Both the position numbers and the translations under genes were made by a program. A stretch of DNA of 64,000 nucleotides from Escherichia coli (GTDB taxonomy: Bacteria; Pseudomonadota; Gammaproteobacteria; Enterobacterales; Enterobacteriaceae): assembly GCF_041248615.1 (NCBI RefSeq), contig NZ_CP158426.1, one strand, 5' to 3'. This document shows, piece after piece, positions 53,749 through 56,041 of this stretch. The first letter of the stretch is position 1. Every line of letters begins with the position of its first letter. Below the pieces are notes generated by a model that ran no database searches, was not told where the DNA came from, and was given only the letters and a program-made list of their open reading frames with translations.

Positions 53749-54738
53749 CTACTCTTCTTCGTTCCCGCCCTCTTCATACGGGCCAAATGGCTTCGCGGGC
53801 AGAACGATATACGTGCCTTCAAACACTGCACCCGGCGTCTCGTCGCCAAAGATTTCGACCTGCATTTGCACCCGCGCTTTGCGCCCGCGTGCCAGACGGT
53901 CGAGATCGCCGCTTAACGCACCGAGGTCGGCTACCGCGTGTGGTTTACCGCTGATTGGTTTGCTGTAACGGATATGCGCATCCGCCAGAATAATCGTTCC
54001 GCCGAGATGGCGTTCGCGCAGCATTAGCCAGATAAGCCCCCAACCGGTGAGCGTAGCCAGCGAGAATAAACTCCCGGCAAACAGCGTATGATGCGGATTC
54101 TGATTGCCGGTTTCCGGCATGGTGGTGATAAATTTTTGCCCGGTATATTGCTGAATGCGCACGCCCATTTTTTCGCTTAGCGGGATATGTTCGTACCACG
54201 CCTGCTGAAGCTGGGCGCACCAGTCGCCGCGATGCAAAATATCATCCAGAGTGGCGACAGGTTTAATCATCAAAAAATGGCGAATCGGCGTGGTGGTTGG
54301 CGTGGTGATTTCTCCCTGATTAACAAACCCCAGCTTGGCGAAAAACTCCACCGCGTCTTCGCGGGCGCTACAGGTCACGCGCTTAACACCTTCCTGACGC
54401 GCCACAGATTCGAGGGTCATCGCCATCAGCGTTCCTAACCCTTTGTCCTGCACGTCGGGATGAACGGCCATAAAGCGAATGGACGCTTCATTGTCGGCAT
54501 TAATATACAGTCGGCCTACCGCCACCAGATTACCCTGCTCGTCGACGACCATCTGGTGATGCGCCATCGCATCCCACGCGTCGCGTTCCGAACCTTTCGG
54601 TTGATGCAGGGGCTTACGCAACATTTCCCAGCGAAACTGATAGTAACGCTCTAACTCTTCTTCTGTTTGTGGAACCCGAAGGTGATACATAGCGATACTC
54701 TCTCTTGTTTCCCGTGACAACCCTGGAAGCTGGCTCAT
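53749..54738 (-). CDS. fabY: GNAT acetyltransferase/thioesterase-fold protein YiiD (FabY)
   Basis: 329 aa, [46 protein letters not shown]...; start ATG overlaps the dtd stop (ATGA). Confidence 0.9.
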
Positions 54739-55172
54739 ACCTGCAACCAGAATGTCACGGGGCCATCATTGACCAGCGATACCTGCATATCCGCAGCGAA
54801 GCGTCCTGTTTGCGTGTTCATCTCTTGCTGACGGCAGCGTTCGACGAAATAGTCATATAACGCCTCTGCGCGATCCGGTGATGCACCTTTGGAGAAACTT
54901 GGACGCATCCCCCGTTCGGTATCTGCGGCGAGGGTAAACTGGGAAACCACCAGCACACTGCCGCCCGCCTGTTGCACGTTGAGGTTCATCTTGCCTTCGG
55001 CATCGCTAAAGATGCGATAGCCGAGCACACGCTCGCACAGACGGTTTGCTTTCTGTTCGTCGTCATCCTTTTCGACACCCAATAACACCAAAAGTCCCGC
55101 GCCAATTTCGCCCGTCACTTCTCCCTCCACGGTGACGCTGGCACGGGTTACGCGTTGAATTAATGCAATCAT
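54735..55172 (-). CDS. dtd: D-aminoacyl-tRNA deacylase
   Basis: 145 aa, [37 protein letters not shown]... ...SQFTLAADT... Confidence 0.95.
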
Positions 55173-56041
55173 GGTTCGTCGTCTTCTTCTTGTTCAGCTG
55201 CTTGTTTTAATTTGCGGTATTCCCCGAGAGTGACAGTAATTTCCGCGCCAAGCAAGACGATACACCATGTCCAGTAGACCCAAACAAAGAGAATGGGGAT
55301 CACCGCCAGCACGCCGTAAATGAGCTGATATGACGGGAACATGGTGATATAAAGCGCGAAACCTTTCTTTCCTGCTTCGAACAGGAGTGCAGCGACAAAC
55401 GCGCCGACAATCGCGTCGCGGTTAGGTACACGGATGGTAGGAACGATGCTGTACAGCAGCCAGAAGGAGATCCACGACAACAGCAGCGGAAAAATACGCA
55501 GCACGTTGTCGATGACAGTATTGAGATCGCTCGCCCAGCGCAGGGAGAGCAAATAGGAACTGATCGCCAGACTGGCCCCTGCCAGCAGCGGCCCCAGCGT
55601 TAAAATCATCCAGTACACGGCAAACGAGTAAATTTTTGGTCGCGCTCGTTTACTGCGCCAGATGGTATTCAACGCGCTATCGATGGAGTACATCAACAAT
55701 AACGCCGTGACGATCAGCCCGCACGCCCCAACGGCGGTCATCTTGTTGGAATTGGCAACAAATTGTTCGATATACCGCTGAATAACATCGCCAGTAGCAG
55801 GCAGAAAGTTGGCAAAAATAAAGTGACGCAACTGAATGCTGACGTCGGAAAACATGGGAAAAGCGGCGAAAAGCGCAAAAACAACGGCAACAAGCGGCAC
55901 TAATGAGAGCAACGAAACATAGGCAAGGTTACCTGCCAGGGTTGTCATGTTGTCCTCATCAATGCGTTGCCAGAGTAGTTTTAGCCAGGCCCATAGTGGA
56001 CGGGTACGGTGCCTGGCTTTGTCCTGAATGGTTTTTAGCAT
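55169..56041 (-). CDS. yihY: Inner-membrane protein YihY (BrkB family)
   Basis: 290 aa, polytopic membrane protein, [50 protein letters not shown]... Confidence 0.92.

Follow-up and report, generated by a model that had tools for sequence, protein, structure and literature searches.

The yihX-yihY-dtd-fabY operon of Escherichia coli: two overlapping junctions consistent with translational coupling and a probable downstream start for fabY

[quoted passage not shown] (2019, 2023). When native Escherichia coli pairs with an ATGA overlap were tested experimentally, four of five proved to be coupled (PMC6728339); bioBF, one of the five, initiated de novo despite a weak Shine-Dalgarno (SD) sequence (PMC6728339). 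Close packing of this kind is widespread, in that 707 of the 2,987 unidirectional pairs of E. coli (24%) fall at distances of -8 to +6 nt, with -4 as the commonest class (PMC10666635). Overlapping pairs are also enriched for genes encoding subunits of a complex, and a spacing of about 20 nt almost abolishes termination-reinitiation in E. coli (PMC10666635). The genes themselves have been grouped before, with yihXY-dtd-yiiD treated as a four-gene RegulonDB transcription unit in PMC4421995. The last gene of the unit, yiiD (also fabY or madA), encodes the malonyl-ACP decarboxylase FabY/MadA, a two-domain protein in which an N-terminal GNAT domain, mapped to residues 19-162 in a 329-aa numbering (PMC8666670), is joined to a YiiD_C hot-dog fold; published work also refers to residues N214 and H216 of FabY/YiiD (PMC13353551).

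We have analyzed the corresponding genes in a 64,000-nt stretch of an E. coli genome (the window), where genes, order, strand and junction sequences are all the same as in the K-12 unit yihXY-dtd-fabY (b3885-b3888). Compared with MG1655, the region shows about 97.5% identity and no difference in structure except the annotated fabY start; in E. coli NRZ14408 and isolate 362 it is 100% identical. Pfam and NCBIfam matches, backed by the RefSeq annotation of the identical genomes and of K-12, identify four co-directional genes that encode, in order, a HAD phosphatase, a BrkB-family membrane protein, a D-aminoacyl-tRNA deacylase and a GNAT+YiiD_C protein. An earlier interpretation made from the DNA letters (the sequence-only reading) had thus been correct in its gene names, order, minus-strand orientation and tight packing. 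Of 5426 complete E. coli genomes, 5425 carry the string, which is an ordinary, already catalogued core operon. It carries little weight as a discovery, since the reference annotation already includes the operon with all its genes and overlaps, and such junctions are among the commonest in E. coli. We consider it likely that this core operon is loaded with ribosomes at yihX, that yihY and dtd are translated by reinitiation, and that fabY initiates independently from residue Met17 of the K-12 protein model.

The first gene, yihX (56035-56634, minus strand), encodes a HAD-family glucose-1-phosphatase of 199 aa according to Pfam (Hydrolase/HAD_2) and RefSeq annotation. It is preceded by the SD sequence AAGGAGG (56640-56646, minus strand), which ends 5 nt before the ATG, is predicted to form a duplex of -11.6 kcal/mol with the 3' end of 16S rRNA, and has a GGAG core that is invariant in an alignment of Enterobacteriaceae genera. 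No other strong SD is found among yihX, yihY and dtd, and efficient ribosome loading would occur only at yihX, the owner of this single strong site. A GTG at 56655 was considered as an alternative yihX start and was rejected; it has no SD, and the annotations agree on 56634.

The most likely site for transcription to begin is a conserved promoter-like element (56665-56693, minus strand) that precedes the yihX SD by about 30 nt and whose promoter function is suggested by its conservation. This block consists of a -35-like TAGCCA (56693-56688), a 17-nt spacer ending in CTTTCCCGC, and a -10 element TACAGT (56670-56665), with a C at -13. It is kept in 15 of 15 Enterobacteriaceae genera while the DNA further upstream is unrelated; CCGCTACAGT is present at this position in 33 loci, and the TAnAGT motif is nearly invariant among 20 Enterobacterales. 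The block matches the sigma-70 consensus at 8 of 12 positions, and a consensus scan therefore did not list it. The same scan, which is too weak to exclude internal promoters, gave none on the gene strand, and a terminator scan, likewise too weak for exclusion, gave 4 terminator-like matches against 6.2 expected from shuffled sequence. Literature searches on transcription start sites and operon structure yielded only a list of operons derived from RegulonDB (PMC4421995). The RegulonDB grouping, the block upstream of yihX and the outcome of the scans may point, indirectly, to a single polycistronic transcript.

The three junction strings singled out by the sequence-only reading are all present when the minus strand is read directly, and they differ in what they imply. 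At the yihX/yihY junction, ATGCTAA (56035-56041) holds the yihY ATG (56041-56039), a single nucleotide and the yihX TAA (56037-56035). The 1-nt separation had been recognized, but its description as a near-overlap was mistaken; the ATG precedes the stop, and the two genes share a true overlap of 7 nt. The string ATGYTRA is kept at this junction in 19 other Enterobacteriaceae genomes, and elsewhere the distance is -4 (6 genomes), -1 (6 genomes) or a positive gap, as in Yersinia, Serratia, Hafnia and others. Some form of overlap (-7, -4 or -1) thus occurs in 31 of 48 other genomes, and the changes of form between genera suggest that the constraint on this junction is weak. The gene that begins here, yihY (55169-56041, minus strand), encodes a BrkB/YihY-family inner-membrane protein of 290 aa (Pfam PF03631 at 4e-60; NCBIfam NF002457 at 1.7e-143, with the alignment beginning at residue 2) and has a single in-frame start candidate. 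Its SD, AAGGUG, is weak (-3.9 kcal/mol at a spacing of 2).

At the yihY/dtd junction, ATGA (55169-55172, minus strand) places the yihY stop within the dtd start, a 4-nt overlap just as had been proposed. The dtd gene (54735-55172, minus strand) encodes a D-aminoacyl-tRNA deacylase of 145 aa, identified by annotation and by a match of residues 3-144 to Pfam PF02580 at 2.2e-58, and its SD is very weak (-1.9 kcal/mol). The distance of -4 is found in 44 of the 64 gammaproteobacterial genomes in which yihY and dtd are adjacent. These genomes span Enterobacterales, Vibrionales, Pasteurellales and Orbales, and include Photobacterium, Vibrio (as GTGA), Aggregatibacter and Zophobihabitans.

Coupling at yihX/yihY and at yihY/dtd is a reasonable hypothesis in view of these overlaps, the weak SDs, the conservation and the behavior of the tested ATGA pairs. 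The distances of -7 and -4 both lie within the range of -8 to about +6, and the dtd/fabY distance, measured to the conserved fabY start described below, lies outside it at +44. The locus shares with the pairs of Huber et al. the ATGA at yihY/dtd, a -7 overlap in the same phase at yihX/yihY, and weak downstream SDs. It differs from them in that coupling is deduced here from sequence and that the products are not known complex subunits. The starts of yihY and dtd overlap the preceding stops by 7 and 4 nt and their SDs are weak or absent; most likely, the bulk of their translation comes from ribosomes that finish the gene before and then reinitiate.

An overlap with a weak SD does not prove coupling, however, because bioBF initiated de novo from just such an arrangement. 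The overlaps might therefore be products of neutral compaction or of drift in the start and stop positions, with every gene initiating de novo and no functional coupling. The drift of the yihX/yihY junction among -7, -4, -1 and positive gaps is in keeping with this explanation, as is the commonness of short overlaps, which make up 24% of same-strand pairs. In a 44-kb neighborhood of an identical genome, -4 overlaps occur at 4 of the 33 same-strand pairs (yihY/dtd, fdhE/fdoI, fdoI/fdoH and rhaA/rhaB), and the arrangement does not exceed what chance or background would give. RNA folding also gave no structure beyond that of shuffled sequences at the three junctions (z = -1.3, +1.0 and +0.35), leaving no significant structure that would occlude them; the minimum free energy fold does pair the yihY AAGGUG with an upstream CCACC, but its z is only -1.3. 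Against neutrality stand the contrast between the yihY and dtd SDs (the former at a spacing of only 2) and the far stronger one of yihX, the retention of -4 at yihY/dtd across four orders, and the coupling of four of the five native pairs tested. We consider neutral overlap unlikely, and favor reinitiation at yihY and dtd.

The third junction is a different matter. An ATGA is present at the dtd stop (54735-54738, minus strand), as the sequence-only reading had noted, and it is built from a Val codon, GTA, followed by TGA. It makes dtd and fabY overlap only if fabY begins at 54738, and the comparative data favor 54690. The two starts correspond to two annotations: the K-12 reference protein NP_418324.1 begins at 54738 and has 329 aa, and the PGAP protein WP_001297068.1 begins 48 nt downstream at 54690 and has 313 aa. 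The downstream codon, Met17 of the longer model, is ATG in all of 67 relatives. The upstream ATG is in frame in 25 of the 67, all of them close Enterobacteriaceae, and is absent, out of frame or interrupted by a stop in the other 42, among them Cedecea and other Enterobacteriaceae. The 16-codon extension of the K-12 model, which coincides with the 44-nt spacer between dtd and the downstream start (54691-54734, minus strand), shows indels, frame changes and in-frame stops in relatives. It also lacks codon periodicity and third-position bias, with entropies at the three codon positions of 0.42/0.64/0.67 vs 0.14/0.07/0.93 in fabY codons 18-80.

What is conserved in the spacer is a purine block, ACAARAGAGA, that is invariant. 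The spacer holds the SD AAGAGAGAG (54706-54698, minus strand), which would serve the ATG at 54690 with a predicted -4.8 kcal/mol at a spacing of 6. The sole SD-like element available to the ATGA start, GCAGGU, abuts the ATG (-3.1 kcal/mol at a spacing of 0). With a conserved SD of its own and a conserved start 44 nt past the dtd stop, fabY most likely lies apart from dtd, beyond the spacer, and initiates independently on the shared mRNA at the AUG of Met17. The ATGA is most likely incidental, an ATG that arises from the last dtd codon and the TGA. The proposed coupling of dtd to fabY finds no support in this comparison; +44 nt is beyond the distance range of coupling in the pairs of Huber et al., and well past the roughly 20 nt that nearly abolishes reinitiation.

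Some initiation at the ATGA may nevertheless occur in E. coli, given that 19 Enterobacteriaceae genomes keep it at an unchanging 44-nt spacing. A dual-start arrangement can accordingly be imagined for E. coli and its close relatives, in which Met17 gives a major 313-aa protein and reinitiation at the dtd UGA gives a minor 329-aa isoform. The ATGA geometry favors such reinitiation, and the frame from ATGA to Met17 is open in E. coli and 24 others (the 25 of 67 above), 18 of which keep the 44-nt spacing. This arrangement seems quite unlikely to us; the extension peptide is without selective constraint, no proteomic support was found, and an open frame of 16 codons could reflect chance together with shared ancestry. 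The proteomic sources were the supplements of TRAINSPOTTER N-terminomics and of Salmonella riboproteogenomics, in which yiiD, fabY, dtd and yihY were not among the entries, and a literature search on the yiiD start codon found nothing relevant. The full model of the sequence-only reading, with all three junctions overlapping and coupled and FabY a 329-aa protein from the ATGA, has in its favor the K-12 annotation, the 16 in-frame codons kept in 25 of 67 relatives and a classic reinitiation geometry, but is highly improbable in view of the 42 relatives without a usable upstream frame, the indels and absent periodicity of the extension, the lack of a usable SD at zero spacing, the PGAP choice of the downstream start and a GNAT domain that begins only at residue 19.

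With independent initiation at Met17 as the preferred reading, fabY occupies 53749-54690 (minus strand), its 313-aa product beginning MYHLRVP, and the 329-aa K-12 model probably has 16 residues too many. Pfam and NCBIfam matches reproduce the FabY/MadA architecture, with an N-terminal GNAT domain and a C-terminal PF09500/TIGR02447 hot-dog domain, and PDB entry 1T82 matches FabY residues 169-314. The published N214/H216 numbering fits the 329-aa model, whereas the conserved protein starts at residue 17 of that model; the K-12 FabY model and the numbering in the FabY/MadA/YiiD papers thus probably include 16 non-native N-terminal residues. The choice of start matters for the design of recombinant constructs as well as for any inference of dtd-fabY coupling.

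The degree to which the yihY-dtd overlap is conserved is unusual and could help to reveal what YihY does, a subject on which nothing was found in the literature. Given the enrichment of overlapping pairs for complex subunits, the retained overlap might reflect a functional or physical partnership between YihY and the D-aminoacyl-tRNA deacylase. Such a partnership could mean that the two proteins are made in a fixed stoichiometry or associate co-translationally, for example in the disposal of released D-amino acids. This idea is purely hypothetical and we regard it as very doubtful; in Dickeya, Pectobacterium, Photorhabdus, Providencia and others, no yihY lies between yihX and dtd.

Beyond fabY, a 10-bp hairpin (53719-53742, minus strand) begins 7 nt past the stop, within a 121-nt region with a folding z of -1.85, and may be a 3'-end or stabilizing structure. 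It was rejected as a canonical intrinsic terminator, having no U-tract, and an Rfam search over 48-58 kb of the window gave no matches. The sequence-only reading had an accessory island begin immediately downstream of the operon, which is approximately right: collinearity with K-12 continues beyond the fabY stop for another 479 nt, as far as 53270. The variable segment that follows (49011-53269) comprises 4,259 nt that are absent from K-12 by blastn. Among 5426 complete E. coli genomes, 329 contain at least 80% of its length and 3408 contain parts of it.

The variable segment carries an unstudied ORF of 604 aa (51520-53334) for a putative SopB-like phosphatase. The ORF and 17 homologues have no match in Pfam or NCBIfam, the ORF has no sequence match in the PDB, and the genomic context of two distant homologues gave no clue to a secretion system. 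It contains a CX5R motif of the 4-phosphatase type, CKSAKDRT, which is the active-site motif of INPP4B (PMC3248162), and the G-C-K..K-D-R positions are invariant or nearly so among 18 homologues. A structure model of the protein (pLDDT 84.6, pTM 0.86) had as its top PDB match in Foldseek SopB (8jzl_A, E 4.5e-7), albeit with low TM-scores (0.38/0.44), followed by a Legionella phosphoinositide phosphatase (4jza), P-Rex1 (6pcv) and a second Legionella phosphoinositide phosphatase (4fyg). The protein is thus predicted, by modeled fold and CX5R motif rather than by sequence membership in a curated family, to resemble the SopB/IpgD/INPP4 phosphoinositide phosphatases.

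The four minus-strand genes yihX, yihY, dtd and fabY (also called yiiD or madA) form a core operon that has been catalogued already, with "yihXY-dtd-yiiD" listed among the four-gene operons from RegulonDB (PMC4421995), so that the string as a feature was known before. By Pfam and NCBIfam they encode a HAD phosphatase (yihX, 56035-56634), a BrkB/YihY-family membrane protein (yihY, 55169-56041) and a D-Tyr-tRNA deacylase (dtd, 54735-55172), followed by a GNAT + YiiD_C protein (FabY/YiiD/MadA; ORF list, Pfam and NCBIfam) that ends at 53749 and can start at either 54738 (329 aa) or 54690 (313 aa). 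Of 5426 complete E. coli genomes, 5425 contain the 3.8-kb region. E. coli NRZ14408 and isolate 362 match it at 100% identity and MG1655 at about 97.5%; with NRZ14408 the 100% identity holds across 33400-64000. The annotated yihX start is the ATG at 56634, with AAGGAGG 5 nt upstream; a GTG at 56655, taken as the start in a mechanical ORF list, was rejected as lacking a Shine-Dalgarno (SD) sequence.

A sequence-only reading had described these genes as translationally coupled through ATGA and near-overlapping junctions, and direct reading of the sequence places all three junction strings exactly where it had put them. The yihY ATG is indeed 1 nt from the yihX TAA (ATGCTAA, 56041-56035), but because it lies upstream of that stop there is a 7-nt overlap between the genes, and "near-overlap" is not the right description. 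At yihY/dtd, positions 55172-55169 read ATGA, and the yihY TGA shares TG+A with the dtd ATG in a 4-nt overlap. The ATGA at the dtd stop (54738-54735) is also present; whether it marks an overlap depends on which fabY start holds. The three-junction observation is real, yet two of the overlaps are commonplace, and at the third junction there is probably no gene overlap. A distance of -4 (ATGA) is the commonest among same-strand gene pairs of E. coli, and 707 of 2,987 unidirectional pairs (24%) lie at -8 to +6 nt (PMC10666635). Within the annotated 44-kb neighbourhood of an identical genome, 4 of 33 same-strand pairs overlap by 4 nt (yihY/dtd, fdhE/fdoI, fdoI/fdoH and rhaA/rhaB), with one more at -7 and one at 0. 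The junction geometry is real and not unusual.

The curated K-12 annotation begins fabY at the ATGA, giving 329 aa (NP_418324.1), and residue numbers in use for FabY/YiiD, N214 and H216 (PMC13353551), fit this model. PGAP, the RefSeq annotation pipeline, starts the gene 48 nt further downstream in the identical genomes NZ_LT599825.1 and NZ_OW967178.1, giving 313 aa (WP_001297068.1) and a 44-nt gap after dtd. Eighty loci from other species were fetched with Dtd as query, and the four genes were placed in them by tblastn. The Met of the conserved FabY N-terminus MYHLRVP (MF(R/K)L in Vibrionaceae), which is Met17 of the K-12 model, is an ATG in all 67 loci where fabY adjoins dtd. An in-frame ATG overlapping the dtd stop occurs in only 25 of the 67, all close Enterobacteriaceae; the other 42 have other codons there, an ATG in another frame (Cedecea neteri, Enterobacter sp. 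Ag1), or in-frame stops before the conserved Met (Cedecea sulfonylureivorans, Klebsiella sp. BIGb0407, Dickeya, Pectobacterium, Yersinia, Erwinia, Photorhabdus, Vibrio and others). Across loci, between 15 and 320 nt separate the dtd stop from the conserved Met.

Among 19 genomes, MG1655 included, that retain the ATGA and the 44-nt spacing, the 15 extension codons between the ATGA and Met17 have positional entropies of 0.42/0.64/0.67, without third-position bias; the values for fabY codons 18-80 are 0.14/0.07/0.93. In these genomes the spacer has a single invariant stretch, ACAARAGAGA, located 7-8 nt ahead of the conserved ATG, the expected place for an SD of that start. Predicted SD hybridisation at Met17 is -4.8 kcal/mol with a spacing of 6. 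The ATG at the ATGA, for which minor use in E. coli is conceivable, scores -3.1 kcal/mol with a spacing of 0, and it consists of a Val codon GTA running into the TGA of dtd. Furthermore, published mapping puts the GNAT domain at residues 19-162 in the numbering of the 329-aa model (PMC8666670). Together, the conserved Met, the entropy of the extension, the SD energies, the domain limits and the GTA+TGA origin of the upstream ATG point to 54690 as the most likely fabY start and make the dtd/fabY "overlap" most likely an annotation-dependent artefact.

Among yihX, yihY and dtd, a strong SD (-11.6 kcal/mol) precedes yihX alone; the SD of yihY is AAGGUG with a spacing of 2 (-3.9 kcal/mol), and dtd has essentially none (-1.9 kcal/mol). 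Of the 64 genomes with yihY next to dtd, 44 have a distance of -4 and another 2 a distance of -1, a set that takes in Photobacterium, Vibrio (GTGA), Aggregatibacter and Zophobihabitans. The yihX/yihY overlap is recurrent without being fixed in form: 19 other Enterobacteriaceae genomes have ATGYTRA (-7), 6 have ATGA (-4) and 6 have TGATG/TAATG (-1), and in Yersinia, Serratia, Hafnia, Budvicia and others the gap is positive. Predicted RNA folds at the junctions were no different from those of shuffled sequence. Termination-reinitiation coupling was found in four of five native E. coli ATGA pairs tested, with bioBF uncoupled (PMC6728339), and coupling is almost abolished at spacings of about 20 nt (PMC10666635). 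The SD energies, junction conservation and published coupling data best support a model in which ribosomes would load at yihX, yihY and dtd would be translated mainly by re-initiation, and fabY, at +44 nt and with its own SD, would initiate independently.

Operon composition is modular, since the placement of yihY and the presence of yihX vary between taxa. In 12 loci yihY does not lie between yihX and dtd, and yihX is directly 5' of dtd in Dickeya, Photorhabdus, Providencia, Morganella, Pectobacterium, Brenneria and Xenorhabdus. Vibrionales, Pasteurellales and Orbales lack yihX but keep yihY and dtd side by side.

A consensus scan of the string region found no promoter on the gene strand, and 4 terminator-like sites versus 6.2 expected, including 2 within the string on the gene strand. 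Upstream of yihX, alignment revealed a block, TAGYCAAAC-N6-CTTTCCCGCTACAGTTA, that is kept in 15 of 15 Enterobacteriaceae genera; CCGCTACAGT occupies its position in 33 loci, and TAnAGT is nearly invariant among 20 Enterobacterales. The DNA further upstream is unrelated between genera and often ends in another gene's terminator. The block holds a -35-like TAGCCA (56693-56688, minus strand) and, after a 17-nt spacer, a -10 TACAGT (56670-56665, minus strand), a pair with 8 of 12 matches that falls under the scan threshold. Judged by this conservation, which is strong across Enterobacterales whatever gene lies upstream, the minus-strand block at 56665-56693, with its CTTTCCCGCTACAGTTA, is probably the operon promoter, in which TACAGT is preceded by a conserved C at -13, a base that sigma-S favours. 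The block could in addition be a regulator site, since conservation of its GC-rich spacer exceeds the needs of a plain sigma-70 promoter. After fabY there is a 10-bp hairpin with no U-tract (53742-53719), and Rfam gave no matches over 48-58 kb.

The accessory island was said to begin immediately downstream of the operon. Collinearity with K-12 in fact continues to 53270, 479 nt beyond the fabY stop, and K-12 lacks the 4,259 nt that follow (49011-53269). Of 5426 genomes, 329 carry at least 80% of this segment and 3408 carry parts of it. The segment is a variable spot, not a separate island adjoining the operon. It carries a two-gene cassette resembling a toxin-antitoxin pair (49612-50214, minus strand), in which ORFs for a 103-aa hypothetical protein and a NadS/MqsA-like HTH protein abut, and a LipP1/hormone-sensitive-lipase-family esterase (50368-51351, plus strand). 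The initial 65-95 nt of a 604-aa ORF lie in DNA shared with K-12 (53270-53364), so K-12 may be a deletion derivative, rather than the window having gained an insertion.

This 604-aa ORF (51520-53334, minus strand; 53364 in the mechanical ORF list) is uninterrupted. PGAP divides it in both identical genomes into a pseudogene, "hypothetical protein, incomplete, missing C-terminus" (53334-52447), and a "transposase" (52434-51520, WP_175085386.1), a split that looks like an annotation artefact because the window has no frame break. A 604-aa E. coli cluster, 98% identical to the query, has 2826 member sequences. The protein had no sequence match in Pfam, NCBIfam or PDB, and one literature search aimed at it found no paper on an E. 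coli homologue. It contains CKSAKDRT, a string known as the active-site motif of inositol polyphosphate 4-phosphatases (PMC3248162). Eighteen distant homologues conserve this motif, and the small family (55 representatives) has invariant C, D and R residues. AlphaFold gave a confident model (pLDDT 84.6, pTM 0.86), whose best PDB structural match is the Salmonella effector SopB (8jzl_A, E 4.5e-7), with Legionella phosphoinositide phosphatases and P-Rex1 structures also near the top. The product may be a phosphoinositide-phosphatase-like protein of E. coli/Shigella that has so far gone uncharacterised.
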